A stretch of DNA of 64,000 nucleotides from NCBI RefSeq assembly GCF_044647545.1, contig NZ_CP172818.1. The stretch is one strand, 5' to 3'. This stretch comes from Escherichia coli. GTDB lineage: Bacteria > Pseudomonadota > Gammaproteobacteria > Enterobacterales > Enterobacteriaceae. The notes under the pieces were generated by a model, which did no database searches, was not told the origin of the DNA, and worked only from the letters and a program-made list of their open reading frames with translations. Each line of letters starts with the position of its first letter. The first letter of the stretch is position 1. Below are positions 30,112 to 58,446 of the stretch, piece by piece. The translations under genes were made by a program, and so were the position numbers.

Positions 30112-30627
<516 letters not shown>

Positions 30628-35978: not shown

Positions 35979-36245
35979 ATGCGAGCAGCGTTTTGGGTAG
36001 GGTGTGCCGCTTTATTATTGTCGGCGTGTAGTAGTGAACCTGTTCAGCAGGCGACTGCGGCGCACGTAGCGCCAGGTTTAAAAGCGTCGATGTCCAGTAG
36101 TGGAGAAGCAAATTGTGCAATGATCGGCGGTTCGCTTTCTGTTGCCCGTCAACTGGATGGTACGGCGATTGGGATGTGTGCATTACCCAACGGCAAACGC
36201 TGTAGCGAACAGTCACTTGCCGCCGGGAGCTGTGGCAGCTATTAA
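35979..36245 (+). CDS. ydbJ: Small lipoprotein YdbJ
   Basis: 88 aa; lipobox LLSAC. Confidence 0.8.
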   Translation: MRAAFWVGCAALLLSACSSEPVQQATAAHVAPGLKASMSSSGEANCAMIGGSLSVARQLDGTAIGMCALPNGKRCSEQSLAAGSCGSY

Positions 36246-36664: not shown

Positions 36665-36774
36665 TGTGGTTCTCAATTACAGTTTCTGACTCAGGGCTAT
36701 TTTAAGAATAGAGGATGAAAGGTCTTTGGGGATTATCTGAATAAGCTCCCCTGGAATGCAGGGGAGCGGCAAGA

Positions 36775-37764: not shown

Positions 37765-37971
37765 AAGACTTTCTCCAGTGATGTTGAATCACATTTAAGC
37801 TACTAAAAATATTTTACAAAATTTCAAATATAATTGAAAGCTATGGCGATATTGAAAAATTCATCAACAACTATGCTTAGTGTAGGCGCAACCTTCAACT
37901 GAACGGTTAAACATGCCACAATACCCGTATTGAATGCTTAATTTTTCGCTAAATCAGGATATTAACTACCC

Positions 37972-40611
37972 ATGCTGGGTAAATATAAAGCCGTTCTCGC
38001 GCTGTTATTACTGATTATTCTTGTGCCGTTGACGCTGCTGATGACGCTCGGGCTGTGGGTTCCTACGCTGGCGGGCATCTGGCTACCGCTCGGGACACGT
38101 ATTGCATTAGATGAAAGCCCACGCATTACGCGTAAAGGTTTAATCATTCCCGATCTCCGTTATCTGGTGGGAGATTGTCAGCTTGCGCATATCACCAACG
38201 CCAGCCTTTCACATCCCAGCCGCTGGTTATTGAACGTCGGCACGGTAGAACTTGATTCTGCTTGTCTGGCGAAATTGCCGCAGACGGAGCAATCGCCAGC
38301 CGCTCCAAAAACCCTCGCGCAGTGGCAGGCCATGTTGCCTAACACCTGGATCAATATCGATAAACTGATTTTTTCTCCCTGGCAGGAATGGCAGGGAAAA
38401 CTCTCTCTCGCATTAACCTCCGATATCCAGCAACTGCGTTATCAGGGCGAAAAAGTTAAATTTCAAGGCCAGCTGAAAGGGCAACAACTTACAGTCAGCG
38501 AACTGGATGTCGTCGCGTTTGAAAATCAGCCGCCGGTTAAACTGGTGGGGGAATTTACTATGCCGCTCGTGCCGGATGGACTTCCGGTAAGTGGGCATGC
38601 TACTGCGACGTTAAACTTGCCGCAGGAACCGTCACTGGTGGATGCAGAGCTGGACTGGCAGGAAAATAGCGGGCAATTGATCGTGCTGGCACGGGATAAC
38701 GGCGATCCGTTGCTCGATTTGCCGTGGCAAATTACTCGTCAACAATTGACCGTAAGCGATGGTCGCTGGAGCTGGCCGTATGCAGGTTTTCCTTTGAGTG
38801 GCCGACTGGGTGTCAAAGTCGACAACTGGCAGGCAGGGCTCGAGAACGCTCTGGTCAGCGGACGACTGAGTGTGCTGACCCAGGGGCAAGCGGGTAAGGG
38901 CAACGCGGTGCTTAATTTTGGCCCTGGAAAATTAAGCATGGATAACAGCCAGCTGCCTATGCAGCTGACCGGTGAAGCGAAACAGGCGGATCTCATTTTA
39001 TACGCCCGCTTACCTGCGCAGCTAAGCGGAAGTCTGACTGACCCAACGCTGGCCTTTGAGCCAGGCGCGTTATTACGTTCGAAGGGAAGAGTCATCGATT
39101 CGCTGGACATCGATGAAATCCGCTGGCCTTTAGCGGGTGTAAAAGTCACCCAACGTGGTGTTGACGGACGTTTGCAGGCCATTTTGCAGGCGCATGAAAA
39201 TGAACTGGGCGATTTCGTGCTGCATATGGATGGACTGGCGAATGATTTTCTCCCTGACGCTGGCCGCTGGCAGTGGCGCTACTGGGGAAAAGGCAGTTTT
39301 ACACCGATGAATGCCACCTGGGATGTCGCAGGAAAGGGTGAGTGGCATGACAGCACGATTACGCTGACCGATCTCTCCACCGGTTTCGACCAGTTACAAT
39401 ACGGTACGATGACGGTTGAAAAGCCGCGACTAATTCTCGACAAGCCCGTCGTCTGGGTACGTGACGCACAGCATCCCTCCTTTAGCGGCGCGCTGTCACT
39501 GGACGCCGGGCAAACGCTGTTCACTGGCGGCAGTGTGTTACCGCCATCAACCTTAAAATTTAGCGTCGATGGACGCGATCCGACGTATTTCCTCTTTAAA
39601 GGCGATTTACATGCTGGTGAGATTGGCCCGGTTCGGGTAAATGGTCGCTGGGACGGTATTCGTCTGCGCGGTAACGCCTGGTGGCCTAAACAATCACTGA
39701 CCGTATTCCAGCCGCTGGTGCCACCCGACTGGAAGATGAACTTACGCGATGGCGAACTATATGCCCAGGTCGCATTTTCTGCTGCGCCTGAACAAGGATT
39801 CCGCGCGGGAGGGCACGGTGTGTTGAAAGGCGGTAGTGCCTGGATGCCAGATAATCAGGTTAACGGTGTCGATTTTGTCCTGCCTTTCCGTTTTGCCGAT
39901 GGAGCCTGGCATCTGGGGACTCGCGGCCCCGTTACGTTGCGAATTGCCGAAGTGATTAATCTGGTGACAGCGAAAAATATTACGGCTGATTTGCAAGGTC
40001 GTTATCCGTGGACTGAAGAAGAACCATTGCTGTTGACTGATGTTAGCGTTGATGTGTTAGGCGGTAACGTACTGATGAAACAATTACGTATGCCGCAACA
40101 TGACCCGGCGCTGTTGCGGCTGAATAATCTTTCCTCCAGCGAACTGGTTAGCGCCGTCAATCCGAAACAATTCGCCATGTCCGGGGCATTTAGTGGTGCA
40201 TTGCCGTTATGGCTAAACAACGAAAAATGGATAGTGAAAGATGGTTGGCTGGCAAATAGCGGGCCAATGACCTTGCGGCTGGATAAAGACACCGCAGATG
40301 CGGTGGTGAAAGACAATATGACTGCGGGTTCAGCAATTAACTGGTTGCGCTATATGGAAATTAGCCGTTCATCGACAAAAATTAATTTAGATAATCTCGG
40401 TTTATTAACCATGCAGGCCAACATTACAGGTACCAGTCGCGTTGATGGTAAAAGCGGTACGGTAAATCTTAATTACCATCATGAAGAGAATATTTTTACG
40501 CTGTGGCGCAGTTTACGCTTTGGCGATAATCTCCAGGCATGGTTGGAGCAGAACGCACGTCTGCCGGGAAATGACTGTCCGCAAGGAAAAGAGTGTGAGG
40601 AAAAACAATGA
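37972..40611 (+). CDS. ydbH: AsmA-like large envelope protein YdbH
   Basis: 879 aa; N-terminal TM helix. Confidence 0.9.
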   Translation: MLGKYKAVLALLLLIILVPLTLLMTLGLWVPTLAGIWLPLGTRIALDESPRITRKGLIIPDLRYLVGDCQLAHITNASLSHPSRWLLNVGTVELDSACLAKLPQTEQSPAAPKTLAQWQAMLPNTWINIDKLIFSPWQEWQGKLSLALTSDIQQLRYQGEKVKFQGQLKGQQLTVSELDVVAFENQPPVKLVGEFTMPLVPDGLPVSGHATATLNLPQEPSLVDAELDWQENSGQLIVLARDNGDPLLDLPWQITRQQLTVSDGRWSWPYAGFPLSGRLGVKVDNWQAGLENALVSGRLSVLTQGQAGKGNAVLNFGPGKLSMDNSQLPMQLTGEAKQADLILYARLPAQLSGSLTDPTLAFEPGALLRSKGRVIDSLDIDEIRWPLAGVKVTQRGVDGRLQAILQAHENELGDFVLHMDGLANDFLPDAGRWQWRYWGKGSFTPMNATWDVAGKGEWHDSTITLTDLSTGFDQLQYGTMTVEKPRLILDKPVVWVRDAQHPSFSGALSLDAGQTLFTGGSVLPPSTLKFSVDGRDPTYFLFKGDLHAGEIGPVRVNGRWDGIRLRGNAWWPKQSLTVFQPLVPPDWKMNLRDGELYAQVAFSAAPEQGFRAGGHGVLKGGSAWMPDNQVNGVDFVLPFRFADGAWHLGTRGPVTLRIAEVINLVTAKNITADLQGRYPWTEEEPLLLTDVSVDVLGGNVLMKQLRMPQHDPALLRLNNLSSSELVSAVNPKQFAMSGAFSGALPLWLNNEKWIVKDGWLANSGPMTLRLDKDTADAVVKDNMTAGSAINWLRYMEISRSSTKINLDNLGLLTMQANITGTSRVDGKSGTVNLNYHHEENIFTLWRSLRFGDNLQAWLEQNARLPGNDCPQGKECEEKQ

Positions 40612-40793
40612 AAATTTTACTGGCTGCGTTGACGTCATCTTTTATGCTGGTTGGCTGTACGCCTCGCATTGAAGTCGCTGCCCCTAAGGAACCGATCACT
40701 ATCAATATGAACGTTAAAATTGAGCATGAGATCATCATCAAGGCAGACAAAGATGTCGAAGAGCTGCTTGAAACTCGTAGCGATCTTTTCTGA
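40608..40793 (+). CDS. ynbE: Small lipoprotein YnbE
   Basis: 61 aa; lipobox LVGC; ATG overlaps ydbH stop (ATGA). Confidence 0.8.
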   Translation: MKILLAALTSSFMLVGCTPRIEVAAPKEPITINMNVKIEHEIIIKADKDVEELLETRSDLF

Positions 40794-40800
40794 GGCGATG

Positions 40801-41127
40801 ATGAAGAAAACATTACTTCTTTGTGCGTTTCTTGTTGGGCTGGTAAGCAGCAATGTAATGGCATTGACTCTGGATGAAGCCAGAACTCAGGGGCGGGTAG
40901 GTGAAACATTTTATGGTTATCTGGTTGCGCTGAAAACAGATGCTGAAACAGAGAAATTAGTAAACGACATTAATGCCGAACGTAAAGCGAGTTACCAACA
41001 ACTGGCAAAGCAAAATAATGTGTCGGTAGATGATATCGCGAAACTCGCCGGGCAAAAGCTCGTAGCTCGGGCCAAACCGGGGGAATATGTACAAGGGATA
41101 AACGGTAAATGGGTGCGAAAATTTTAA
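40801..41127 (+). CDS. ydbL: Periplasmic protein YdbL
   Basis: 108 aa with signal peptide (MKKTLLLCAFLVGLVSSNVMA). Confidence 0.8.
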   Translation: MKKTLLLCAFLVGLVSSNVMALTLDEARTQGRVGETFYGYLVALKTDAETEKLVNDINAERKASYQQLAKQNNVSVDDIAKLAGQKLVARAKPGEYVQGINGKWVRKF

Positions 41128-41297
41128 TAGCAAAACCGCACTATCGGGATAACGCTACAGGAGAAGGCGATTAATCTATTTTCCGGAAACAAGATGATTA
41201 TTCAAAAACTCCTGTCAAATTGCCTTTCGCCCTGAAAATGAATAGTCAAATATCTGTTTTAACTAATTAGCGTTGCTGTACATGCAACGCTAATTAG

Positions 41298-42203
41298 TTA
41301 GCGGAATTTACGTCGATACTCGCCTGGCGTCATCCCAAAGCGTTGCTTAAATACCGTTGAAAAATGACTCTGGTCGGAAAATCCCCAATGAAAGCCAATG
41401 CCTGCCAGTTTTTCATCATCTGCGGCATGGCGAATCGCATCTGCACAAAAATCGAGACGACGGTTACGGATATATTGCGCGACTACCAAACCTTTATCGG
41501 CAAACATTCGGTACAAACTACGTACTGACATACCTGTCTCTCCGGCTATCCACTCCGGGCGTAATATCTCTTCGCGAATATTATCGTCTATCAACGTAAC
41601 CACTTTTTGAAACTGACGTTCACGACGAGGTTGAACAGATTCCCGCTGATGAAGTACCGGGCGCAGCAGACACACCATCGCCTGTAGCGCAGCTTCACTT
41701 TCTGTTTCAGAAAGTGCCGGATTATTCATGCTCTCCTGTAACAGGCGATGACTGAGTTGCACCATGGGTAAGTCAGCGTCCAGTCTTTCTGCGCAGATAG
41801 GTTTTTGATGGGGAAAATATTGTTCCAGCAGAGTGCGTGGCAAAAGTAATGAAATCTGTTTAGAAGACTCCTGCCAGTAAAGCGAACAGGGGCGTGAGGC
41901 ATCGAGTAACGTAATATCGCCAGCGCCAATCTGCACCTGACGCTCATCCTGCTCCATTATTGCCTGACCACTAAGCTGAAAAACGGTGTAAAACCAGGCA
42001 TCGTCGCTGCCTTTTACTTCCTGCCAGGTGCGGGATAAATTCACCCCGCTGGTTGTCACGGTACTCAGCTTTAGTCCTTTGGCAAAATGCGTGTCCAGTA
42101 CACCCGTGTAACGCTCAGTCAGCAGGCGTCCGGTAAAATTTCCGCATACCTGATTGATTTGGGAAAGCCATTGCTGAAACTCATTATCCACTGCGGGGTT
42201 CAT
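41298..42203 (-). CDS. feaR: AraC-family activator FeaR
   Basis: 301 aa; C-terminal AraC HTH; divergent from feaB. Confidence 0.9.
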   Translation of the reverse strand: MNPAVDNEFQQWLSQINQVCGNFTGRLLTERYTGVLDTHFAKGLKLSTVTTSGVNLSRTWQEVKGSDDAWFYTVFQLSGQAIMEQDERQVQIGAGDITLLDASRPCSLYWQESSKQISLLLPRTLLEQYFPHQKPICAERLDADLPMVQLSHRLLQESMNNPALSETESEAALQAMVCLLRPVLHQRESVQPRRERQFQKVVTLIDDNIREEILRPEWIAGETGMSVRSLYRMFADKGLVVAQYIRNRRLDFCADAIRHAADDEKLAGIGFHWGFSDQSHFSTVFKQRFGMTPGEYRRKFR

Positions 42204-42435
42204 GGCACGTTTTCGCTCTGTGAAATGTATTTTTATTGTTGCATTTGTGTTGCAATAAACGAAGCTAATGAGCCTGACTATAGGAAATAAGTCTTGTCAG
42301 GCATAGAGACATAAGCGGTTATTGTCACGATTTGCGGAGCTTGTCACAGCTGACAAAGCGAATGTCACAGCGAAAAAAGTGACTTTTCTTGTCGCTGCGT
42401 ACACTGAAATCACACTGGGTAAATAATAAGGAAAA

Positions 42436-43932
42436 GTGATGACAGAGCCGCATGTAGCAGTATTAAGCCAGGTCCAACAGTTTCTCGATCGTCAACACGG
42501 TCTTTATATTGATGGTCGTCCTGGCCCCGCACAAAGTGAAAAACGGTTGGCGATCTTTGATCCGGCCACCGGGCAAGAAATTGCGTCTACTGCTGATGCC
42601 AACGAAGCGGATGTAGATAACGCAGTCATGTCTGCCTGGCGGGCCTTTGTCTCGCGTCGCTGGGCCGGGCGATTACCCGCAGAGCGTGAACGTATTCTGC
42701 TACGTTTTGCTGATCTGGTGGAGCAGCACAGTGAGGAGCTGGCGCAACTGGAAACCCTGGAGCAAGGCAAGTCAATTGCCATTTCCCGTGCTTTTGAAGT
42801 GGGCTGTACGCTGAACTGGATGCGTTATACCGCCGGGTTAACGACCAAAATCGCGGGTAAAACGCTGGACTTGTCGATTCCCTTACCCCAGGGGGCGCGT
42901 TATCAGGCCTGGACGCGTAAAGAGCCGGTTGGCGTAGTGGCGGGAATTGTGCCATGGAACTTTCCGTTGATGATTGGTATGTGGAAGGTGATGCCAGCAC
43001 TGGCAGCAGGCTGTTCAATCGTGATTAAGCCTTCGGAAACCACGCCACTGACGATGTTGCGCGTGGCGGAACTGGCCAGCGAGGCTGGTATCCCTGATGG
43101 CGTTTTTAATGTCGTCACCGGGTCAGGTGCTGTATGCGGCGCGGCCCTGACGTCACATCCTCATGTTGCGAAAATCAGTTTTACCGGTTCAACCGCGACG
43201 GGAAAAGGTATTGCCAGAACTGCTGCTGATCACTTAACGCGTGTAACGCTGGAACTGGGCGGTAAAAACCCGGCAATTGTATTAAAAGATGCTGATCCGC
43301 AATGGGTTATTGAAGGCTTGATGACCGGAAGCTTCCTGAATCAAGGGCAAGTATGCGCCGCCAGTTCGCGAATTTATATTGAAGCGCCGTTGTTTGACAC
43401 GCTGGTTAGTGGATTTGAGCAGGCGGTAAAATCGTTGCAAGTGGGACCGGGGATGTCACCTGTTGCACAGATTAACCCTTTGGTTTCTCGTGCGCACTGC
43501 GACAAAGTGTGTTCATTCCTCGACGATGCGCAGGCACAGCAAGCAGAGCTGATTCGCGGGTCGAATGGACCACCAGAGGTATTATGTTGCGCCAACGCTA
43601 GTGCGGTAAAATCCCGATGCTAAATTGCGCTTAACTCGTGAAGAGGTGTTTGGTCCGGTGGTAAACCTGGTGCGAGTAAGCGGTGGAAGAGGCGTTACAA
43701 CTGGCAAACGACACGGAATATGGCTTAACTGCCAGTGTCTGGACGCAAAATCTCTCCAGGCTCTGGAATATAGCGATCGCTTACAGGCAGGGACGGTGTG
43801 GGTAAACAGCCATACCTTGATTGACGCTAACTACCGTTTGGTGGGATGAAGCAGTCAGGAACGGGCCGTGATTTTGGCCCCGACTGGCTGGACGGTTGGT
43901 GTGAAACTAAGTCGGTGTGTGTACGGTATTAA
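42436..43932 (+). pseudogene. feaB: Phenylacetaldehyde dehydrogenase, 3' part frame-disrupted here
   Basis: Aldehyde dehydrogenase ORF stops at 43623 (395 aa); homologous sequence continues in another frame (43625..43849). Confidence 0.75.
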
Positions 43933-43952
43933 TATTGGTTCGCTAATTAAGT

Positions 43953-43979
43953 AAAAAACGGCACCTGGTGCCGTTTTTT
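43953..43979. terminator. Bidirectional rho-independent terminator between convergent feaB and tynA
   Basis: aaaaaacggcacctggtgccgtttttt (A-run, hairpin, T-run). Confidence 0.55.
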
Positions 43980-43991
43980 GTCTGAAAACAA

Positions 43992-46266
43992 TCACTTATC
44001 TTTCTTCAGCGCCCCTAGCGTTGGCGTTTCATAAAGAAGTTCCATGGTTTAAGCAGAGTATGTACCCATTCGGTCGGCATAATCGGCCACTCTTCAGCAC
44101 GGGCCACATGTGTGGTGCCGGTGGGTCATCCAGACAACGGCGTCGGTGTTGTCCAGCGACTCGTTATCTTTACTGTATTGTCCAAGACCGGTGTCATCAG
44201 TAGAACGGTTCAGGATATTTGCCTTCCGGGAAACGCTCGCCAGGATGATAACGCGTTACCCAGAAAGCTGCTTTGTCCATAAAGCTTAAACGATGATAGA
44301 TCCACTCATCCCAGGCGCCACTGGGCACCTTTTGCTACCGGGTGAGTACCGCCTGCATAAGGAATAATTTGATAGGAAACTGGATTGCCCATGCGGTTCT
44401 CTTTGTTGCGGGTTACTCAACAGACGAATCATGCCCCGGATCAAACTACGGCATCCTGTTCATTGCCGATGTTGTACTGATTAACTTGCATCAAGGTACT
44501 GGTGCGTCGGCCACCGGCAGTATTCGGTTTCCACTGGGTCCATCGCCACCAGGCTGTTATTCTCGCCATCTACATAAGGAATCGAGGCAGAAATTATCGA
44601 TCTGTTTGGTGTCAGTACCCACGATACTGTGATCGATAAGCGTGCCGTAGCGCGTGTCATCTTTCGCCGTCTCATCGTGCATGGTTTTCGCTTTAACACC
44701 TTTCACCGCTTCGATGCCCGTAGCACCGGCATCAATGCCAATAGTGCCGTTTTCATGGAAGATCCAGTCAAAATGTAGTCATAGTTACCCACTGTACTGA
44801 TCCAGCGCACCACTGACTCCCAGCATTCAGGTACTGACGTTGGGCTGGCCCATTTCCTGATGCTTATACTCCGGCCCGGCATAACGTTTCAAATACCGCG
44901 ATAGCGCGAGGATCTCCATCGGCACGCCAGTGTAGTCGGCGATGGTTTCATTAAGGAGCACTGCGTTAGACGGGGCATCTTTACCACGGCGAAATTGGTG
45001 AGGTTAGCGTGCCCATACCGTAGTCACCAGAGTCCAGATACGCTTTAAAGTACCAGCCAATATCCAGGATCACCGTAAGGCACAATAATGTCGCCGAGGA
45101 GAACCTTCGTGCATGACTTTGCGTTTGGTGCCGATATTGGTATATAGTCACGGTGGAGATCATAGGCCCGACGCGAGAGTTCATGCTGAGGTGAAAATCC
45201 CAGTTCCGCCAGTGAATAGTATCTCGCCAGTAATGGTGTAATTTTTACCTTCAGGCTCAATGATTTGCATAGGCTTGACTGCCGGAGCAACGCGGTCACG
45301 GCTATCAAATGGGCGTGCGGTCATTCACACGGAACTCCGGACCTTCTTCAATCTTAACGATTTTTTTCTGTTTCTGATCAACGACCGCCACCAGGTTTTC
45401 GATGGGATGTGCCCAGTAGTTCCATCGCCGACAGTCAAGATAGCTGATGACTTTGAGCAACCGGGCATCTTGTTTCAGGCCATCTTTACCATCGAAATAA
45501 CCTACGGTCAGCGGCGTGGTAATCACTTTTTTCGCATCAGTAATACCGCGTTTCTTCACGGCAGCGGCAAATTCTTCACTGTTGTTAATAATGTTCTGCA
45601 CACTGGCGAAATCATCCAGCAACACCATACCCGTGGCGTGTTTAATGGGTTCCAGGAGAGCAGTTTGTTGTTTTGCAGATCCACCACCGCTTCGATGATA
45701 TGTTTGCCGTCGAGCATAATGACGTCGGCTTTGCGCGGCTGGTCAACCGGTTTGTTTTCCAGCGCAAACGCCCAGACAGCTTCTTTATCTGGCGGTAGCA
45801 GGAGATCTCAGTAAAACAGGGTATTGGGTTTGAAGTCCCGCGGAAGCTTTAACAATTTCAACGGCCTGTTTAATTTCGTACCACAGTTCACGCATTAAGT
45901 GGGTGAGGGCGCTTTTATTACCTGAAAGGTTTGATCCAGACCGGACTGGAAAACATCGTTAATAAAGGTGTCGCAAAACCCAGGCCTTATTGTCTTTCAT
46001 ACGCTCCCGGCACTTGCAGTGCCAAGGTAGCCATTAACAATTGCTGTTTTGCGCACCAGGCTTCACTTTCACGTACGCGCCATCTTTAATCAGGGTAAAG
46101 ATCTGGGCGTAGTCGTCCCACTGCACATCGGCACCAAATTCTTTAAGCGTTTCATCCATTGGCACCATATGCGCTTCACCACCGTGGGCAAATACCGGCG
46201 CTTGCCAGGCGAAACTTAAGGCGACTGCCAACGCCAGGGTTGTTTTACGGGCAGAATCCGGAGAAA
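43992..46266 (-). pseudogene. tynA: Copper amine oxidase, heavily frame-disrupted here
   Basis: C-terminus GALKKDK at 43992; recognisable TynA-like fragments in ORFs 44481..44699, 44981..45184, 45305..45628, 46034..46315 in different frames. Confidence 0.7.
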
Positions 46267-46525
46267 GAGGGCTTCCAGTTATTAACCTCGTCAGATGTTG
46301 TGTTCTTGTTAGCAACCGCGCTCTGTGGGCGGTTTAGTCAGGTTCACATTATGAGTACTGATGCAAAGAAATCCTGCACCTCAGAGTTATTTGGCAGGTG
46401 TGCCCACTTTTTCATACAGTGGGTGCCCTGAAAATCAATGTACACATCATGCATAATGTGACAACGTCACAAAAGTTAGTGAAATGAAAAAGGGCAACTG
46501 TTCGGGCCGTTGCCCTTCATTCACC

Positions 46526-48563
46526 GATTAATCGACAAAATCACCATATCCTGGCCACCAGCGTCAGAATTGAATACAGCGCCACCGGGGTTTGATGCTG
46601 ATTGAATACCTCTACCGCCCATTCCACCACCTGTTGGTTTTTCTTCTGCGCTACGCTGTTTTTTCAGCGTCTTGCGCTTACAGGTGAGACGCACCTGGAT
46701 GGTATCGCCTGGCTTTACGGGTTCGATAAGCGCAAGTTTTCCAGCCCATAATTAGCAATGACCGGACCGACACCGGCATCGACAAACAGACCCGCAGAGC
46801 CGCAGAAAAAGCACAAAATACCCATGCACCACACGCTCACCGAAAATAGATTCGGCAGCAGCAGAATATTATCCATATGCGCATAGAAATAATCGCCGCT
46901 GAGGCAAGCAAAGTTAACAATATCGGCCTCTGTCATTGTGCGGCGGGAGTGGCAGGTATCCGCCTGGTTGTAGCTCCTCAAAATATTTGCGGAACGGATG
47001 AATACGATCTTCTTCGACTTTCGCACCACGCACCCACTGTTTACTGATAGCTGCAAGCATCGTCGGACTACCCTGAACAGCGGTTCGCTGCGTGTGATCC
47101 TTCACCCGCTCGTAAACCACCTAATTCTTCACCGCCTCCTGCGCGACCAGGCCCACCATGTAACAGTTGTGGCAGTCGGAGAGCCATGCCGGTGGATTCT
47201 TTTGCCGATTCCTCATTGAGGATCTGAATTCGCCCATGCGTACGTGCCGCGTCGGTAATAAACTGACGCGCAATTTGCGGATCAGCCGTCACCAGCGTTC
47301 CGCAAGGCTACCGCCGCCTGCACAAGCCAGTTGCAGAGCATGTCGCTGGTTTTGTGCTGGCATCAGCGTTGCGACAGGGCCAAAGGCTTCTGTTGCATGT
47401 ACCGCCGGTGTTTCATCCGGCTGCGGACAGTACAATAAGGTTGGCGGGAAAGAGCACCCGCAGCAGATAAATCCGCCTGACCACCGAGGCGAATCTCGCA
47501 TCCTGCAGCCAGCAATATGTTCACTTTTTCCTGCACATCGGCACGCTGCTCAGCATTTACCAGTGCGCCCATATTCACGCCTTCCTGAGCAGGATCACCG
47601 ACCACGACTTTCTGTAATCGCGCAACCAGGACGATTCACTGACAGCATTAACCAATGCCTGCGGCGCGATAATCCGCCGGATTGCCGTACATTTTTGCCC
47701 GGCTTTTGTGGTCATCTCACGCACAACTTCACGAATAAACAGCGCAAACTCCGAGTTAAATGCGGGTAACATCTTCGCCCAGTACGCAGCAGTTCAGGGA
47801 ATCAGCTTCCATAGTGAAGGGGATAGATTTGGCGACGATATTTGGCTGAACTCGCGGCGTCTCTGCAGGTCGCCGCTGACCCGTGAAAGTCACCACATCC
47901 TGGCTGTCCAGATAATCCAAAAGGTCGCCCGCACTACCGCAGATCAGACTAATTGCGCCTTCGGGAACAAGACCACTATCGACAATTGATTTCACCATCG
48001 CCTGAGTACGTTGGGCCGTCGCGGTAGCTGGTTTGATGATGGCTGGCATTCCGCCCAGCCACGTTGGTGCCAGCTTCCGGCGTTTTGCCACAGGGGAAGT
48101 TAAAGGCGTTAATATGCACTGCCACGCCTGAGCTTTGAGGTCAGTACATGGCGCGCGGCAAATCCACCTTCTTTCGATAAGGGGATCAATTCATCTTCCG
48201 GCCACAGCGTATCGTCGGCGGCTGCCCGGCTACCGAGGCTGGCGTAAGTAAATAACGTCCCAATGCCACCTTCAAATCAACCGAACTGTTGCCGCGTTGC
48301 GCCTGTTTGCGCAGAAAGACATAGAAGCGCTCTTTTTTCACTCAGCAGATGTTTAGCGACCGCTTTAAGCATCGCCGCACGTTCGATAAAGGTCATCACG
48401 CAGAAGCAGCCTTTTCAATGGCAAACTGCAACGGGCCACCGCCATATAGACCTTTCACTGGTCACTTCCCATAACGCCTCGCCGCTGATAGCGTGGTGAA
48501 TCAAACGGCTACCACCCCGCCAGACTGCCAGGTACCGGATAAGAAACTGGCTAACTGCTGCAT
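46526..48563 (-). pseudogene. paaZ: Bifunctional PaaZ, heavily frame-disrupted here
   Basis: N-terminus MQQLASFLSGTWQSG at ~48563; fragments spread over at least 7 short ORFs; terminator hairpin at ~46488..46516. Confidence 0.7.
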
Positions 48564-48796
48564 CGCTACTCTCCAGATGTTTCACATTTATGTTGCTAAT
48601 AGTTAAATTGCGAATCATAAAAAGCAAGGGTTCTTTTAACGAAATGTTAACTATGCAAATATGTATCACAACTGCGGAAAACATTAATGCACTGATAAAT
48701 AATGATTTATAAAAAATCGGGTGCGAAATCCGTCACAGTTCAAGCATACAAAATTTGTGATTTTAGTTAACCATTGTGTAACTTTCATAAACAATG

Positions 48797-48834
48797 TGAT
48801 TCGTGTTTTTAATTAATTCGCGAACTTGGAATCG
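48797..48834. promoter_or_regulatory. PaaX-operator-like inverted repeat in paaZ-paaA divergent promoter region
   Basis: TGATTC ... GAATCG half-sites ~26 nt apart. Confidence 0.35.
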
Positions 48835-48846
48835 TAAAGGTAATAA

Positions 48847-49773
48847 CATAACCCAAGAAGAACGCTTTGAGCAACGGATAGCCCAGGAAACGGCTATCGA
48901 GCCGCAGGACTGGATGCCAATAAGAAAGCACTGATCCGCCAGATTGGGCAGCATGCACACTGCAAATTGTGGTATGTTCCTGAAGGTAACTGGATCACTG
49001 GCGCACGACCTTTTGCAGCATAAAGCCATTCTGTTCGCCAAAGTCCAGGATGAAGCCGGTCATCGTCTGTATCTCTATAGCGCCGCCGAAACACTGGGCT
49101 GCACAGAGAAGACATCTACCAAAAAATGCTCAAACAACGATAAATATTCCTCCATCTTTAATTATCCGACATTGGTCTCCAGGGGCTGATATCGGCGTTA
49201 TCGGCTGGCTGGTGGAGTAGCAGCGATCGTCAATCAGGTGGCGTTATGTCGCACTTCTTATGGCCCGTATGCCAGAGCAATGGTGAAGATCTGCAAAGAA
49301 GAGAGTTTTTCACCAGCGTCAGGGGTTTGAAGCCTGCATGGCACTGGCGCAGGCGGCGAAGGACGCTCAAAAGCAGATGTTGCAAGACGCCATTAACCGT
49401 TTCTGGTGGCCAGCCTTAATGATGTTCGGGCCAAACGATGATAACTCGCCAAACAGCGCCAGAAGTACCGCCTGGAAAATCAAACGTTTCACCAACGACG
49501 AACTCGCCAGCGTTTCGTGGATAACACCATTCCACAGGTTGAAATGCTCGGTATGACCGTTCCTGACCCGGATCTGCATTTTGACACTGAAAGCGGTCAC
49601 TACCGCTTTGGTGGAAATCAACTGGCAGGAGTTTAACGAAGTAATTAACGGTCGCCGGAATTTGTAATCAGGAGAGGCTCGACGCCAAACGTAAAGCCTG
49701 GGAAGAAGGTACCTGGGTACGGGAAGCAGCGCTGGCCCATGCACAAAAACAACTTGCCCGTAAGGTCGCATAA
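48847..49773 (+). pseudogene. paaA: PaaA-like monooxygenase subunit, frame-disrupted, no ATG at expected start
   Basis: Frame begins ata-acc-caa (ITQEERFEQRIAQETAIEPQDW) then stops; later fragment in ORF 49338..49556. Confidence 0.65.
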
Positions 49774-49784
49774 GGAGATTCAAA

Positions 49785-50077
49785 ATGAGTAATGTTTATT
49801 GGCCGTTATACGAAGTTTACCCGTTCGTGGCAAACAGGGCTTATCACACCGCCATGTTGGCAGTTTTTACATGCTGCCGATGAGCGGATGGCACTGAAAA
49901 TGCCGGTGATTGTTACACCGTCGTAGCGAAGGATGTTCAATTTGGGTGGTGAAGGCGAGTGAAATTGTTGCCTCGCAACCGGAAGAACGCGGTGAATTTT
50001 TTGATCCGGCTGAAGCAAGGTCTATCGCCATCCAACGTTTTACACCATCCCTGATGGCATTCAACATGAGGTCGGAA
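49785..50077 (+). pseudogene. paaB: PaaB-like subunit, 3' end frame-disrupted
   Basis: MSNVYWPLYEV... start at 49785; later part in shifted frame (ORF 49910..50149). Confidence 0.6.
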
Positions 50078-50820
50078 ATGAATCAGTTAACGGCTTACAC
50101 CTTCGCCTGGGCGATAACTGCCTGGTGCTTCCAGCGGTTGGGTGAATAGTGCGGTCATGCACCGGAACTGGAAATCGATCTCGCACTGGCAAATATTGGA
50201 CTCGATTTATTAGGCCAGGCACGCAACTTCTTATCGTATGCCGCTGAATTAGCGGGAGAAGGCGATGAAGATACCCTGGCCTTCACCCCAACAAGCACCA
50301 GTTCAGCAACTTATTGTTGGTTGAACAGCCAAACGGCAATTTTGCCGACAACCGTCGCCAGTATTTCATCGATGCATGGCATGTGGCGCTCTTTACCATT
50401 CTGATGGAGAGCCGTGATCCGCGACTGGCGGCGATTTCTGCAAAGCGATTAAAGAAGCGCGTTATAGCCTGCGTTTTATTCGTGGCTGGCTGGAGCAACT
50501 GGGCAATGGTACTGACGTATACGGGCGAAAGAATGCCAGCAGGCCATCAACAAGTTGTGGCGTTTTACCGCCGAACTGTAGATGCCGACGAGATTGATAT
50601 TGCACTGAGTGAAGAGGGTATTGCGGTTGATCCACGCGCTTTTACGCGCAGCGTGGGAAGCCGAAGTTTTTGCCGGGATCAACGAAGCCACATTCAACGT
50701 ACCGCAGAGCAGGCGTATCGCACTGGCGGTAAAAAAGGACTGCATACCGAACACCTTGGACCCATGCTGGCAGAAATGCAGTTATTGTTTGAGCGTGTCT
50801 TGCCCGGTCAGCAATGGTAA
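50078..50820 (+). pseudogene. paaC: PaaC-like subunit, frame-disrupted
   Basis: MNQLTAY start at 50078; C-terminal part in ORF 50314..50820. Confidence 0.65.
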
Positions 50821-50834
50821 CAGAGGAGGTGGGT

Positions 50835-51325
50835 ATGCAACGTATCAGCCACCATTCCGCCGCCACAGGTTCATCCAGATATGGGCGCTACTGGGCGCGA
50901 TCCCGGACCGGAGATCCCGGTGCTGACCATTACCGATTTAGGCATGGTGCGTAATGTGACACAGATGGAAAGAATGGGTGATCGGCTTTACGCCGACTTA
51001 TTCCGGTTGTCCGGCAACGGAACGTTGATTGGCGCGATACGTGAGGCAATGACAACCCACGGGTTTACCCGTACGGTTGTGCTGCAACTCGACCCGGCAT
51101 GGACCACCGACTGGATGACCCCCGATGCCCGTGAGCGTCTGCGACGGTATGGCATTAGCCCGCCCGGCCGGAACAGTTGCCGGCCCATTTGCCGCCAGAA
51201 GTACGTTGCCCGCGCTGCGCCAGCGTCCATCCACACTTATCAGTGAATTTGGTTCCACGGCCTGCAAAGCATTGTACCGCTGCGATAGTTGCCACAAACC
51301 TTTCGATTATTTCAAATGTATTTGA
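50835..51325 (+). pseudogene. paaD: PaaD-like protein, frame-disrupted
   Basis: MQRISHH... start; fragments in ORFs 50881..51246 and 51125..51325 (ends ...FDYFKCI). Confidence 0.65.
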
Positions 51326-51332
51326 GGATGCC

Positions 51333-52406
51333 ATGACAACGTTTCATTCCTTAACAGTGGCAAAAGTGGGCCCGGAAACCCGTGATGCGGTGACCATTAC
51401 CTTTGCATGCAGCCTTTGCAGGAGGCGTATCACTTTCGCCCCGGTCAACATTTGACCTTAAAAGCCAGTCTTGATGGTGAAGAATTAGCCATTGTTCTCC
51501 ATTTGCCGCAGCTACCTGCCTGGCGAAATTAGTGTGGCGGTGAAAGCCATTGAAGGCGGACGTTTCTCCCGCTATGCCCGCGAACACATCCGCCAGGGTA
51601 TGACGCTGGAGGTCATGGTGCCGCAGGGGCATTTCGGCTATCAGCCACAGGCCGAACACCAGGGCCGCTATCTGGCTATTGCAGCAGGATCAGGTATTAC
51701 GCCAATGCTGGCGATTATCGCCACCACTTTCAAACCGAGCCTGAAAGTCAGTTCACCCTGATCTACGGTAACCGTACCAGCCAGAGCATGATGTTTCGCC
51801 AGGCACTGGCAGACCTGAAAGACAAATATCCTCAGCGTTTACAGTTGTTGTGCATTTTCAGTCAGGAAACCCTCGACAGCGATCTGCTTCACGGGCGTAT
51901 TGACGGTGAAAAATTACGTGGCTTGGGGCCTCGCTCATTGATTTTTCGTCTTTATGATGAGGCGTTTGCTTTGTGGTCCGGCGGCGATGATGGATGAGAC
52001 GGAAGCCGCCTTAAAAGCACTGGGAATGCCAGATAAAACCATTCATCTGGAGCGGTTTAATACGCCTGGCACGCGCGTCAAAGCGTCGCGTTAACGTGCA
52101 AAGTGACGGACAAAAGTGACTGTACGTCAGGATCGGCGGGATCGGGAAATCGTGCTTAATGCCGACGATGAAAGCATTCTCGATGCGGCATTGCGCCAGG
52201 GGGCTGATCTGCCCTATGCCTGCAAAGGCGGCGTCTGTGCGACCTGCAAATGCAAAGTGCTGCGTGGCGAAGTGGCGATGGAAACCAATTACAGTCTGGA
52301 ACCGGATGAACTGGCCGCAGGTTATGTGTTGAGTTGCCAGGCACTGCCGCTGACCAGCGATGTGGTGGTTGACTTTGACGCGAAGGGGATGGCATCAGCG
52401 AACTGA
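51333..52406 (+). pseudogene. paaE: PaaE-like reductase, frame-disrupted
   Basis: MTTFHSLTVAKV start at 51333; 2Fe-2S ferredoxin C-terminal fragment in ORF 52116..52406. Confidence 0.68.
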
Positions 52407-53172
52407 TCGTCAGCCGTCAGCAACAGGTGCTTGCTGCTGACCCTTAACCGTCCCGCCGCACGTAATGCGCTGAGAATAATGCCCTTCTGACGCAACTGGT
52501 AAATGAACTGGAAGCTGCGGCTACCGATAGCAGCATTTCGGTCTGTGTGATTACCGGTAATGCACGCTTTTTTGCCGCTGGGGCCGATCTCAACGAAATG
52601 GCAGAAAAAGATCTCGCGGCCACCTTAAACGATACACGTCCGCAGCTATGGGCGCGATTGCAGGCCTTTAATAAACCACTTATCGCAGCCGTCAATGGTT
52701 ACGCGCTTGGGGCGGGTTGCGAACTGGCATTGTTGTGCGATGTGGTGGTTGCCGGAGAGAACGCGCGTTTTGCGTTGCTTTTTACAGGAAATCACTCTCG
52801 GCATCATGCCAGGCGCAGGAGGAACGCAACGTTTAATCCGTAGTGTCGGTAAATCGTTAGCCAGCAAAAATGGTGCTGAGCGGAGAAAGTATCACCGCTC
52901 AGCAAGCACAGCAGGCCGGGCTGGTTAGCAACATCTTCCCCAGCGATTTAACCCTCGAATACGCCTTACAGCTGGCATCGAAAATGGCACGTCACTCGCC
53001 GCTGGCCTTACAAGCGGCAAAGCAAGCGCTGCGCCAGTCGCAGGAAGTGGCTTTGCAAGCCGGACTTGCCCAGGAGCGACAGTTATTCACCTTGCTGGCG
53101 GCAACAGAAGATCGTCATGAAGGCATCTCCGCTTTCTTACAAAAACGCACGCCCGACTTTAAAGGACGCTAA
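52389..53172 (+). pseudogene. paaF: PaaF-like enoyl-CoA hydratase, frame-disrupted
   Basis: Crotonase motifs split between ORFs 52547..52843 and 52870..53172. Confidence 0.68.
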
Positions 53173-53960
53173 TGATGGAATTCATCCTCAGTCATGTAGA
53201 AAAGGGCGTGATGACACTAACGCTCAACCGCCCGGAACGCCTGAACAGTTTTAATGATGAGATGCACGCACAACTGGCAGAGTGCCTGAAACAGGTCGAG
53301 CGCGACGACACTATCCGTTGCCTGTTACTTACAGGTGCCGGGCGCGGATTTTGTGCTGGTCAGGATCTTAACGATCGTAACGTTGATCCCACAGGCCCCG
53401 CACCGGATTTAGGGATGTCAGTTGAACGTTTCTATAACCCACTGGTACGTCGCCTGGCAAAACTGCCAAAACCGGTGATCTGTGCAGTCAATGGCGTGGC
53501 GGCAGGGGCAGGCGCAACACTGGCACTGGGGGGCGACATCGTTATTGCTGCCCGTTCAGCAAAATTCGTCATGGCGTTTAGTAAGTTAGGCTTAATACCC
53601 GATTGCGGTGGAACCTGGTTACTGCCACGCGTTGCCGGACGAGCGCGCGCCATGGGGCTGGCACTGCTGGGGAATCAACTGAGTGCTGAACAGGCGCACG
53701 AATGGGGGATGATCTGGCAGGTTGTTGATGATGAAACGCTGGCAGATACCGCGCAACAGCTGGCACGGCATCTGGCGACACAACCGACATTTGGTCTTGG
53801 ACTTATCAAGCAAGCGATAAATAGCGCTGAAACCAATACGCTCGATACGCAACTGGATCTGGAACGTGACTATCAGCGACTTGCCGGACGGAGCGCAGAT
53901 TATCGTGAAGGTGTCAGTGCGTTCCTGGCTAAACGCTCACCGCAGTTCACGGGGAAATAG
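53172..53960 (+). CDS. paaG: Crotonase-family isomerase PaaG
   Basis: 262-aa intact ORF; enoyl-CoA hydratase/isomerase fold. Confidence 0.9.
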   Translation: MMEFILSHVEKGVMTLTLNRPERLNSFNDEMHAQLAECLKQVERDDTIRCLLLTGAGRGFCAGQDLNDRNVDPTGPAPDLGMSVERFYNPLVRRLAKLPKPVICAVNGVAAGAGATLALGGDIVIAARSAKFVMAFSKLGLIPDCGGTWLLPRVAGRARAMGLALLGNQLSAEQAHEWGMIWQVVDDETLADTAQQLARHLATQPTFGLGLIKQAINSAETNTLDTQLDLERDYQRLAGRSADYREGVSAFLAKRSPQFTGK

Positions 53961-53961
53961 C

Positions 53962-55389
53962 ATGATGATAAATGTGCAAACTGTGGCAGTGATTGGGAGC
54001 GGCACCATGGGGGCAGGCATTGCTGAAGTTGCTGCCAGTCATGGACACCAGGTTTTACTGTATGACATTTCTGCTGAAGCGCTGACCCGCGCAATCGACG
54101 GGATACACGCGCGGCTAAATTCACGCGTGACGCGGGGAAAACTGACTGCTGAAACCTGTGAACGCACATTGAAACGCCTGATCCCGGTGACCGATATTCA
54201 CGCGCTGGCAGCTGCGGACCTGGTCATTGAAGCGGCGTCTGAACGTCTGGAAGTCAAAAAAGCGCTCTTTGCACAGCTGGCGGAAGTTTGCCCGCCACAA
54301 ACGCTATTGACCACTAACACTTCGTCAATCTCTATAACCGCGATTGCTGCGGAGATAAAAAATCCTGAACGTGTTGCGGGGCTGCATTTTTTTAACCCGG
54401 CACCGGTGATGAAGTTGGTGGAGGTGGTCAGTGGGCTGGCAACGGCGGCGGAAGTTGTTGAGCAGTTGTGTGAACTAACGTTGAGTTGGGGTAAGCAGCC
54501 TGTGCGCTGTCATTCGACTCCTGGATTTATCGTTAACCGTGTTGCGCGTCCTTATTATTCCGAGGCCTGGCGGGCACTGGAAGAGCAGGTTGCTGCACCA
54601 GAAGTGATTGACGCTGCACTTCGCGATGGCGCTGGTTTCCCGATGGGGCCGCTGGAATTAACCGATCTGATTGGTCAGGACGTCAATTTTGCTGTCACCT
54701 GTTCGGTGTTTAACGCTTTCTGGCAGGAGCGTCGTTTTTTACCTTCGCTGGTGCAACAGGAACTGGTGATTGGTGGACGGTTGGGCAAGAAAAGTGGGCT
54801 GGGCGTGTACGACTGGCGCGCGGAACGTGAGGCAGTTGTTGGCCTGGAAGCGGTAAGCGACAGTTTTAGCCCAATGAAAGTAGAAAAGAAAAGTGACGGT
54901 GTCACGGAAATTGACGATGTTTTATTGATTGAGACACAAGGCGAGACGGCACAGGCGCTGGCAATACGACTGGCACGCCCGGTGGTAGTGATCGATAAAA
55001 TGGCGGGCAAGGTGGTGACCATTGCTGCTGCAGCGGTGAACCCGGACTCAGCGACCCGCAAGGCCATTTATTACCTGCAACAGCAGGGCAAAACAGTGCT
55101 GCAAATTGCAGATTACCCAGGAATGCTGATTTGGCGAACGGTAGCAATGATCATCAATGAAGCCCTTGATGCGCTTCAAAAAGGCGTGGCCTCTGAACAG
55201 GATATCGATACCGCCATGCGTCTTGGGGTGAATTATCCATATGGCCCACTTGCCTGGGGAGCGCAACTTGGCTGGCAGCGAATATTAAGGCTCCTTGAAA
55301 ATCTACAGCATCACTATGGCGAAGAACGCTATCGCCCATGTTCATTGCTGCGCCAACGGGCGCTTCTGGAGAGCGGTTATGAGTCATAA
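53962..55389 (+). CDS. paaH: 3-hydroxyadipyl-CoA dehydrogenase PaaH
   Basis: 475 aa from internal ATG (MMINVQ); Rossmann motif VAVIGSGTMGAGIA. Confidence 0.9.
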   Translation: MMINVQTVAVIGSGTMGAGIAEVAASHGHQVLLYDISAEALTRAIDGIHARLNSRVTRGKLTAETCERTLKRLIPVTDIHALAAADLVIEAASERLEVKKALFAQLAEVCPPQTLLTTNTSSISITAIAAEIKNPERVAGLHFFNPAPVMKLVEVVSGLATAAEVVEQLCELTLSWGKQPVRCHSTPGFIVNRVARPYYSEAWRALEEQVAAPEVIDAALRDGAGFPMGPLELTDLIGQDVNFAVTCSVFNAFWQERRFLPSLVQQELVIGGRLGKKSGLGVYDWRAEREAVVGLEAVSDSFSPMKVEKKSDGVTEIDDVLLIETQGETAQALAIRLARPVVVIDKMAGKVVTIAAAAVNPDSATRKAIYYLQQQGKTVLQIADYPGMLIWRTVAMIINEALDALQKGVASEQDIDTAMRLGVNYPYGPLAWGAQLGWQRILRLLENLQHHYGEERYRPCSLLRQRALLESGYES

Positions 55390-55801
55390 GGCCTGGCAAA
55401 ATGCCCATGCAATGTATGAGAACGATGCCTGCGCCAAAGCGCTTGGCATCGACATTATCTCAATGGATGAAGGCTTTGCTGTAGTGACCATGACCGTCAC
55501 TGCACAAATGCTTAACGGTCATCAAAGTTGCCACGGCGGGCAGCTATTTTCACTGGCTGATACTGCCTTTGCCTACGCCTGCAATAGCCAGGGGCTGGCA
55601 GCCGTCGCTTCTGCCTGCACGATTGATTTTTTGCGTCCAGGCTTTGCCGGAGACACCTTAACTGCTACTGCGCAGGTACGTCATCAGGGCAAGCAAACCG
55701 GTGTTTACGACATCGAAATTGTTAACCAACAACAAAAAACGGTTGCGCTGTTTCGCGGTAAATCTCACCGCATCGGCGGCACCATTACAGGAGAAGCCTG
55801 A
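55379..55801 (+). CDS. paaI: Hotdog-fold thioesterase PaaI
   Basis: 140 aa from internal ATG (MSHKAWQ). Confidence 0.88.
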   Translation: MSHKAWQNAHAMYENDACAKALGIDIISMDEGFAVVTMTVTAQMLNGHQSCHGGQLFSLADTAFAYACNSQGLAAVASACTIDFLRPGFAGDTLTATAQVRHQGKQTGVYDIEIVNQQQKTVALFRGKSHRIGGTITGEA

Positions 55802-57006
55802 TGCGTGAAGCCTTTATTTGTGACGGAATTCGTACGCCAATTGGTCGCTACGGCGGGGCATTATCAAGTGTTCGGGCTGATGATCTGGCTGCTATCCCTT
55901 TGCGGGAACTGCTGGTGCGAAACCCGCGTCTCGATGCGGAGTGTATCGATGATGTGATCCTCGGCTGTGCTAATCAGGCGGGAGAAGATAACCGTAACGT
56001 AGCCCGGATGGCGACTTTACTGGCGGGGCTGCCGCAGAGTGTTTCCGGCACAACCATTAACCGCTTGTGTGGTTCCGGGCTGGACGCACTGGGGTTTGCC
56101 GCACGGGCGATTAAAGCGGGCGATGGCGATTTGCTGATCGCCGGTGGCGTGGAGTCAATGTCACGGGCACCGTTTGTTATGGGCAAGGCAGCCAGTGCAT
56201 TTTCTCGTCAGGCTGAGATGTTCGATACCACTATTGGCTGGCGATTTGTGAACCCGCTCATGGCTCAGCAATTTGGAACTGACAGCATGCCGGAAACGGC
56301 AGAGAATGTAGCTGAACTGTTAAAAATCTCACGAGAAGATCAAGATAGTTTTGCGCTACGCAGTCAGCAACGTACGGCAAAAGCGCAATCCTCAGGCATT
56401 CTGGCTGAGGAGATTGTTCCGGTTGTGTTGAAAAACAAGAAAGGTGTTGTAACAGAAATACAACATGATGAGCATCTGCGCCCGGAAACGACGCTGGAAC
56501 AGTTACGTGGGTTAAAAGCACCATTTCGTGCCAATGGGGTGATTACCGCAGGCAATGCTTCCGGGGTGAATGACGGAGCCGCTGCGTTGATTATTGCCAG
56601 TGAACAGATGGCAGCAGCGCAAGGACTGACACCGCGGGCGCGTATCGTAGCCATGGCAACCGCCGGGGTGGAACCGCGCCTGATGGGGCTTGGTCCGGTG
56701 CCTGCAACTCGCCGGGTGCTGGAACGCGCAGGGCTGAGTATTCACGATATGGACGTGATTGAACTGAACGAAGCGTTCGCGGCCCAGGCGTTGGGTGTAC
56801 TACGCGAATTGGGGCTGCCTGATGATGCCCCACATGTTAACCCCAACGGAGGCGCTATCGCCTTAGGCCATCCGTTGGGAATGAGTGGTGCCCGCCTGGC
56901 ACTGGCTGCCAGCCATGAGCTGCATCGGCGTAACGGTCGTTACGCATTGTGCACCATGTGCATCGGTGTCGGTCAGGGCATCGCCATGATTCTGGAGCGT
57001 GTTTGA
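55801..57006 (+). CDS. paaJ: Thiolase PaaJ
   Basis: 401 aa; thiolase active-site region [10 protein letters not shown]. Confidence 0.92.
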
Positions 57007-57032
57007 GCATATCAACCTGCGAGTACCCTACA

Positions 57033-58346
57033 ATGATAACCAATACAAAGCTTGACCCGATTGAAACCGCGTCTGTTGATGAGTTACAGGCGTTGCAAAC
57101 ACAGCGTCTGAAATGGACGCTCAAACACGCGTATGAAAATGTGCCGATGTATCGGCGCAAATTCGACGCAGCAGGCGTACATCCTGATGATTTCAGGGAA
57201 CTTTCAGACCTGCGTAAATTTCCCTGTACCACCAAACAGGATCTGCGCGACAACTATCCCTTTGACACCTTTGCCGTGCCAATGGAACAAGTGGTGCGCA
57301 TTCATGCTTCTTCGGGAACCACAGGTAAACCGACAGTTGTCGGCTATACGCAAAACGATATTGATAACTGGGCCAATATTGTAGCGCGTTCTTTGCGTGC
57401 GGCAGGGGGCTCGCCCAAAGACAAAATTCATGTTGCCTATGGTTACGGCCTGTTTACTGGTGGGCTGGGTGCGCACTATGGTGCCGAACGTCTGGGCGCT
57501 ACGGTGATCCCGATGTCTGGCGGGCAGACGGAAAAACAAGCGCAACTGATCCGTGATTTTCAACCAGATATGATCATGGTTACGCCATCTTATTGCCTTA
57601 ACCTGATTGAAGAGCTGGAGCGGCAGTTGGGCGGTGATGCCAGCGGTTGCTCGCTGCGGGTTGGAGTATTTGGTGCTGAGCCGTGGACACAGGCCATGCG
57701 TAAAGAGATTGAGCGTCGCCTGGGGATCACCGCACTGGATATTTATGGCCTGTCAGAAGTGATGGGGCCGGGGGTGGCGATGGAGTGTCTGGAAACTACC
57801 GACGGCCCAACCATTTGGGAAGATCATTTCTATCCTGAAATTGTTAATCCTCATGACGGCACACCGCTTGCCGATGGTGAACATGGCGAACTGTTATTCA
57901 CCACGCTGACCAAAGAAGCATTGCCGGTCATTCGTTACCGCACGCGTGATTTAACCCGACTGTTACCAGGAACGGCGCGGACTATGCGCCGCATGGATCG
58001 CATCAGCGGACGCAGCGATGACATGTTGATTATTCGCGGTGTAAATGTCTTTCCGTCACAACTGGAAGAAGAGATTGTCAAATTCGAACATTTATCGCCG
58101 CATTACCAACTGGAGGTGAACCGCCGGGGGCATCTTGATTCACTTTCTGTGAAAGTGGAGTTGAAAGAAAGTAGCCTGACATTGACGCATGAGCAGCGTT
58201 GCCAGGTATGCCACCAGCTGCGCCATCGGATTAAGTCGATGGTGGGGATCTCTACCGATGTGATGATCGTTAACTGTGGCAGTATCCCGCGTTCAGAAGG
58301 CAAGGCGTGTCGGGTGTTTGATCTGCGCAATATTGTTGGTGCCTGA
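57033..58346 (+). CDS. paaK: Phenylacetate-CoA ligase PaaK
   Basis: 437 aa from internal ATG (MITNTKLDP); AMP-binding motif SSGTTGKPT. Confidence 0.9.
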   Translation: MITNTKLDPIETASVDELQALQTQRLKWTLKHAYENVPMYRRKFDAAGVHPDDFRELSDLRKFPCTTKQDLRDNYPFDTFAVPMEQVVRIHASSGTTGKPTVVGYTQNDIDNWANIVARSLRAAGGSPKDKIHVAYGYGLFTGGLGAHYGAERLGATVIPMSGGQTEKQAQLIRDFQPDMIMVTPSYCLNLIEELERQLGGDASGCSLRVGVFGAEPWTQAMRKEIERRLGITALDIYGLSEVMGPGVAMECLETTDGPTIWEDHFYPEIVNPHDGTPLADGEHGELLFTTLTKEALPVIRYRTRDLTRLLPGTARTMRRMDRISGRSDDMLIIRGVNVFPSQLEEEIVKFEHLSPHYQLEVNRRGHLDSLSVKVELKESSLTLTHEQRCQVCHQLRHRIKSMVGISTDVMIVNCGSIPRSEGKACRVFDLRNIVGA

Positions 58347-58446
58347 CGTATCGTCTGGCCCTGGTGGGGTAAAGCGCCAGGGCCAGAAGTCGATACGACC
58401 TGTGCTATGATTCATAAATCACAACAATAACAACAGACTGAAGCGA

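Follow-up and report, generated by a model that had tools for sequence, protein, structure and literature searches.

The repressor PaaX acts on three promoters, Pa, Pz and Px, until phenylacetyl-CoA releases it, and the sequence that it binds in E. coli is TGATTC(N27)GAATCA (PMC9493321), a motif which that review attributes to Kim et al. 2004 and Ferrandez et al. 2000. On established knowledge PaaX sitting on the operator would, in a normal cell, block paaABCDEFGHIJK until phenylacetyl-CoA releases it. The first gene of that operon, paaA (b1388 in K-12; 1,2-phenylacetyl-CoA epoxidase subunit A; PDB 3PVR), is GTG-initiated in K-12. GTG starts about 14% of E. coli genes, and in reporter assays in E. 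coli AUA initiates with about 1-2% (0.02-3%) of the efficiency of AUG (bioRxiv 10.1101/063800).

The 64,000-nucleotide stretch of E. coli DNA considered here (the window) is collinear with K-12 through abgR, the Rac prophage, feaR-feaB-tynA, paaZ, paaA-K, paaXY and ydbA::IS2, with 97.8% identity to K-12 end to end and the differences very unevenly spread. A first-pass annotation had pointed to a PaaX-operator-like inverted repeat ahead of a paaA frame lacking an ATG, and had taken even the first gene of the operon to be untranslatable. Overall what it observed is confirmed and what it made of the observation is partly supported. Very probably the locus is an ordinary PaaX operator and paaA start, corrupted within a low-quality stretch of a K-12-templated, chimeric consensus.

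The PaaX operator between paaZ and paaA

The left half-site TGATTC of the paaA (Pa) promoter lies at 48797-48802 on the plus strand, read directly from the sequence, present in a six-genome alignment and matching the published motif (PMC9493321). The right half-site GAATCG follows at 48829-48834, also on the plus strand, and is a 5/6 match to GAATCA that is the same in all E. coli references aligned. Between them the spacer (48803-48828, plus strand) is exactly 26 nt, as the first-pass annotation had given it approximately for this divergent region. From 48797 to 48850 the sequence reads TGATTC-GTGTTTTTAATTAATTCGCGAACTTG-GAATCG-TAAAGGTAATAAC-ATA, with ACC-CAA next, and the repeat region aligns base for base with annotated E. 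coli paaZ-paaA intergenic regions. The TGATTC/GAATCG repeat is more than chance; the pattern TGATTC-N24-30-GAATC occurs three times in the window with 0.28 expected, and three occurrences were reached in 0 of 100 shuffles.

The six-genome alignment was made up of three fetched references and three genomes from a spread ranking of the 3131 paa-bearing complete genomes, the latter three including two among the most divergent. Throughout it TGATTC, the 27-nt spacer length, GAATCG, the Shine-Dalgarno sequence AAAGGTGAT and the GTG start are all invariant. A K-12 91-mer over the operator region is matched at 100% identity by 1674 of the 3131 complete genomes that carry paa, and all 3131 match it at 95% or more; no complete E. 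coli genome among the 5426 examined exceeds 95.3% identity to the window's own 341-nt version of the locus. The cognate repressor gene is present and intact, the GntR-type paaX at 58447-59397 on the plus strand having one difference from K-12 and scoring as a TIGR02277 equivalog at 410.9 bits against a cut-off of 264.55. With both half-sites in place, the location at the promoter and an intact paaX, the operator architecture proposed for it is borne out, and by alignment the repeat is orthologous to the PaaX operator already described at the E. coli Pa promoter.

The departure from the published form lies in the spacing: every reference has a 27-nt spacer, the window one of 26 nt. What separates it from the references is one A>G, the loss of 1 nt and a change next to it (CACGAAAACTG > CGCGAACTTG), and the missing nucleotide is a private 1-nt deletion lying inside a much longer noisy block described below. 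Were the N26 spacing real, the half-sites, which lie three helical turns from each other, would be 1 nt out of phase, and PaaX would presumably bind less well.

On the paaZ (Pz) side a candidate PaaX site, put forward from sequence only, occurs at 48578-48617 as TGATTC-N28-GAAACA on the minus strand, and is untouched by noise. A further repeat of this half-site form, TGATTC-N24-GAATCA with perfect half-sites, each the reverse complement of the other, is found at 15604-15639, where ydaS and ydaT of the Rac prophage meet, and K-12 has it too; with its 24-nt spacer it may be a chance occurrence or a phage operator. When the intergenic region between paaZ and paaA was scanned with a simple sigma-70 model, no signal exceeded the shuffled expectation, and an Rfam scan of 43000-54000 gave no match.

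The paaA start and reading frame

Just downstream of the operator the damaged Shine-Dalgarno sequence AAAGGTAAT stands at 48836-48844 (plus strand) where the aligned references have AAAGGTGAT, through a G>A at 48842, and by annotation and alignment the triplet at the native paaA GTG start position (48848-48850, plus strand) is ATA, through G>A at both 48848 and 48850. With a further change at 48845 this makes four G>A within 9 nt, turning AAAGGTGATGACGTG into AAAGGTAATAACATA, and in the six-genome alignment all four, together with the three spacer changes, are private to the window. The comparison with the 5' end of K-12 paaA that had been suggested as a check gives GTG for K-12 and ATA for the window. 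GTG is also the annotated paaA start in BS-04, PCN033, U1, XJ6.1 and RM9131, and an ATA start is absent from the six aligned genomes. The reported lack of an ATG is thus correct as to the letters, and is a red herring as an argument, because the native start is GTG; a paaA without an ATG is, on these alignments, normal, the gene never having one in the aligned E. coli genomes.

Onward from 48848 the frame runs ATA-ACC-CAA-GAA-GAA-CGC and translates as ITQEERFEQRIAQETAIEPQDWMP, which in the PDB 3PVR alignment is PaaA residues 1-24 with I for M, and then it breaks. At the orthologous start position there is no ATG, GTG or TTG, and the sole nearby in-frame ATG is the native Met23 codon at 48914-48916, two codons ahead of a frame-breaking 7-nt deletion. 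Within the operator, at 48803, there is also an in-frame GTG from which a spurious ORF of 43 aa starts, and this GTG is in the paaA frame only because of the 1-nt spacer deletion. The paaA remnant as a whole (48848-49773, plus strand) keeps about 94% DNA identity to annotated paaA, and so is recognisable by homology, and shows 34 substitutions and 18 frameshifting indel events relative to BS-04, the frame meeting its first stop at codon 29 out of 309; neither a canonical start behind a Shine-Dalgarno sequence nor an uninterrupted ORF of about 309 codons is found. Because of the change from GTG to ATA, the weakened Shine-Dalgarno sequence and the 18 frameshifting indels no PaaA can be made from the sequence as written. 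The verdict of untranslatability is upheld in this sense, although it holds only as a statement about an artefact.

That ATA might be a genuine non-canonical start from which the operon is expressed gains a little from the low but measurable AUA initiation in reporters cited above. The 7-nt deletion after codon 24, the stop at codon 29 and the 17 further frameshifts stand against it, as do the mutated Shine-Dalgarno sequence, the absence of an ATA start from all six aligned genomes (0/6) and the 3131 paa-bearing genomes, each of which differs from the K-12 91-mer at no more than about four positions. The sequence as written refutes it, and it can be given practically no probability. A 36-mer over the Shine-Dalgarno sequence and the ATA had 0 matches in GTDB species representatives and 0 in JGI metagenomes.

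A noisy block with K-12-identical flanks

The paaA defect is no biological oddity peculiar to the operon but one manifestation of non-evolutionary noise that runs through a block of 9.4 kb. The block (43573-52933, 9361 nt) takes in the 3' end of feaB, tynA, paaZ and paaA-paaF and carries a BS-04-like, non-K-12 haplotype, the first and last informative sites with BS-04-like non-K-12 alleles being 43935 and 52820, both inside it. Against BS-04, the closest E. coli, there are 250 substitutions with 105 inserted and 117 deleted bases, which is 5.0% of bases, and the split of substitutions to insertions to deletions is about 53:22:25. The indels come as 155 events, mostly of 1-2 nt, for an indel-event to substitution ratio of 0.62. 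Frameshifting indel events number 8 in the 3' end of feaB, 38 in tynA, 6 in paaB, 11 in paaC, 11 in paaD, 9 in paaE and 4 in paaF, and the paaZ remnant (46528-48563, minus strand) has 31 of them along with 55 substitutions and a stop at codon 21 of 681. Start codons are also lost in three of the nine block genes (feaB-paaF). Substitutions fall on codon positions 1, 2 and 3 in the numbers 72, 78 and 77 in the block, against 6, 2 and 39 in the flanks.

The changes in the block are clustered: their variance-to-mean ratio is 2.95, and simulated random placement never gave more than 1.21. They are also strongly strand-asymmetric: G>A occurs 58 times and C>T 11 times (p=8e-9), A>G 43 times and T>C 9 times (p=2e-6), and a plus-strand T is almost never changed. 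The same spectrum bias is seen over the minus-strand genes (tynA and paaZ) and over the plus-strand genes (paaA-F). The bias is therefore independent of gene orientation, and the process behind it acts on, or reads, one strand of the whole tract. Among 54 1-nt insertions, 33 repeat a base beside them (p=0.013), and among 1-nt deletions the figure is 30 of 63, which is not significant; this link to homopolymers is weak, and weaker than expected of classic nanopore consensus errors. The edges of the block are sharp and fall within feaB and paaF.

On either side the picture is quite different. The left flank (41509-43572) starts at the deletion junction of strain KN13-4 and, from 41470 onward, has 0 differences from K-12. 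The right flank (52934-59245), with the 3' end of paaF, paaG-K and most of paaX, likewise has 0 differences and its genes are intact. Altogether K-12 is matched without a difference over 41470-43572 and 52934-59313, some 2.1 kb and 6.4 kb.

It might be supposed that these are true old pseudogenes, in a lineage that lost phenylacetate and tyramine catabolism and in which tynA, paaZ and paaA-F, the paaA start included, decayed neutrally. Nine adjacent catabolic genes are indeed broken, and the paa cluster is dispensable; about 42% of complete E. coli genomes lack it. Yet about 5% of private change sits beside the difference-free K-12 flanks of 2.1 kb and 6.4 kb, and with 0 K-12 differences there the synonymous sites next door therefore show no age. 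Spontaneous mutation spectra of E. coli have an indel to substitution ratio of roughly 0.1, far below the 0.62 of the block. The strong strand asymmetry irrespective of gene orientation, the clustered multi-base changes, the edges within feaB and paaF with paaG-K perfect beyond, and the lack of any related sequence in the 5426 complete genomes, in GTDB representatives and in JGI metagenomes all weigh the same way. Neutral decay would show few indels, strand symmetry, no clustering and similarly aged neighbours, and a decayed pseudogene cluster would be shared by related genomes, none of which is seen for the block, so old pseudogenes are a very unlikely account of it.

Alternatively the block could be real DNA, a donor segment copied by a localised, single-strand, error-prone process (for example retro-transfer or a gap-repair tract) and recombined into the fea-paa locus. 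Such a process might leave sharp ends about 9.4 kb apart, a donor haplotype peculiar to the tract and a spectrum specific to a single strand, and if true this would be a form of localised hypermutation not described before in E. coli. No bacterial process is known to give about 5% of mixed substitutions and 1-2 nt indels over 9 kb, which counts against it, and one noisy sequencing read would give the same features; moreover the surroundings show independent signs of reference templating, and there are other small error patches at mapping junctions. We regard error-prone copying as extremely unlikely. Targeted deaminase mutagenesis was considered and rejected, the spectrum having transversions and indels and A<->G changes in both directions, and DGR-type adenine mutagenesis was rejected on the same features.

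Mosaic structure of the window and its probable origin

Outside the block the window is a mosaic of KN13-4-like and K-12-identical sequence. Identity to KN13-4 is 100% over 1-6800, 99.97% over 29734-35829 and 100% over 35629-41505, and 59246-59968 is about 100% KN13-4-like save for two 1-nt deletions. The segments that differ from K-12 by substitutions only, at 1.5-2% (1-7900 and 30000-41500), were considered as noise and rejected as such, their near-100% match to KN13-4 making them natural alleles. In KN13-4 itself a deletion has left remnants of feaR and paaX directly abutting, and the strain's homology to the window ends at 41508 and restarts at 59246. Between these two points the window is K-12-identical except for the noisy block, and the K-12-identical fill thus matches the feaR'-'paaX gap of KN13-4 to within a few bases. 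Identity to K-12 also extends over most of the Rac prophage and ydbA::IS2 regions.

Smaller patches of error lie near structural junctions, namely in intR, at the 3' end of paaY and at the ydbA/IS2 end. The first, at 6814-7754, is private noise. It is set apart from KN13-4 by 26 differences, several of them 1-nt deletions and one a 3-nt deletion, leaves the Rac integrase gene intR as two ORFs (150 and 185 aa) and places three substitutions in the first ttcA codons. At the 3' end of paaY single C residues are deleted at 59923 and 59956 relative to both KN13-4 and K-12, just before the KN13-4 homology ends, and the frameshift gives an ORF of 219 aa in place of the 196-aa PaaY. Immediately beside the IS2 terminal repeat (TGGATTTGCCCC...), at 62801-62820, 20 nt of ydbA are scrambled against K-12, with 4 substitutions and 5 inserted bases, as would be expected if reads from other IS2 copies had been forced onto the junction. 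A single-base deletion at 29242 breaks the small gene ynaM, near 29734 where the KN13-4-like sequence restarts.

Within Rac there are patches of another kind. A 450-nt patch at 10499-10948, in an otherwise K-12-identical recE, is 100% identical to other E. coli prophage exonuclease alleles and leaves the ORF open (880 aa against 866 aa), the hybrid RecE protein not being on record. The 3' end of stfR and tfaR (26725-27823) have other tail-fibre alleles, about 16% divergent from K-12, and the 5' region of stfR (23739-24322) has another tail-fibre allele with 98.5% identity to the KN13-4 prophage, the ORFs being intact in both places. These patches are natural alleles of other prophages. The exact sequences of the window-specific frameshifted PaaY, PaaF fragment and RecE variant are absent from 153 billion gene records.

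A synthetic or deliberately altered sequence, whether simulated decay or the output of a generative model, would also accommodate noise that is confined to patches and a corrupted sequence found in none of the collections searched. A uniform simulation, though, would neither spare T on one strand nor cluster the changes, and a generative origin leaves unexplained the filling of the KN13-4 gap with K-12 sequence to within a few bases at 41508 and 59246. We regard this origin as unlikely.

In the preferred account, that of a templated consensus, the sequenced strain would be a close relative of KN13-4, represented by its own sequence wherever reads existed, and the K-12 template would have been retained where the strain has no DNA, the window being K-12 over the feaR'-'paaX deletion and also across most of Rac and ydbA::IS2. 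The tract of about 9.4 kb would then derive from approximately single-read, single-strand coverage of another paa-bearing E. coli, with about 5% of errors of the raw-read kind. Its length, sharp ends, foreign haplotype, indel split and strand asymmetry could all arise because of such a single-read, single-strand origin, and the pattern of the sequence makes a single noisy read laid on a K-12 template the most likely source. The ATA codon and the N26 spacer are in consequence best read as presumptive base-calling or consensus errors and not as features of a living operon. Some observations sit less easily with a noisy, templated consensus: the tie of the 1-nt indels to homopolymers is weak, below that of classic nanopore consensus errors, neither it nor the sparing of plus-strand T was matched to a documented platform error profile with the tools applied, and the clean K-12-identical segments might conceivably have entered a B2 strain by natural import of K-12-like DNA.

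Operator, GTG start and operon all belong to textbook knowledge of E. coli, there is no new biology here and the biological weight of the locus is very small. Its practical value is as a data-quality flag for the window, in which 43573-52933, approximately 6814-7754, 59923-59956 and 62801-62820 should not be mined for pseudogenes or for start-codon or operator variants. Reports of broken paa, tynA or feaB genes in the window come down to the same trivial cause, no biological interpretation of the N26 spacing or the ATA codon is warranted, and the K-12-identical segments are probably not part of the sequenced organism.

Among known phenomena, artefacts of reference-guided consensus and gap filling resemble the window in several respects, with template-identical segments that complement the feaR'-'paaX deletion of KN13-4 within a few bases, a noisy tract of read length carrying a foreign haplotype and error patches at the IS and prophage junctions. 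The AUU-initiated infC and pcnB share with the window a near-cognate AUN triplet behind a Shine-Dalgarno sequence, but their AUU starts are conserved and their ORFs intact, whereas the ATA of the window is private and its ORF destroyed. Compared with the GTG-initiated paaA of K-12 the window has ATA, AAAGGTAAT for AAAGGTGAT and the 18 frameshifting indels, and yet its DNA is collinear and the first 24 codons agree except for codon 1. Likewise, set against the E. coli Pa operator of paaABCDEFGHIJK, the window differs in a spacer of 26 and not 27 nt and in two further private spacer changes, and agrees in the half-sites, in the orthologous position between paaZ and paaA and in the presence of the cognate paaX.
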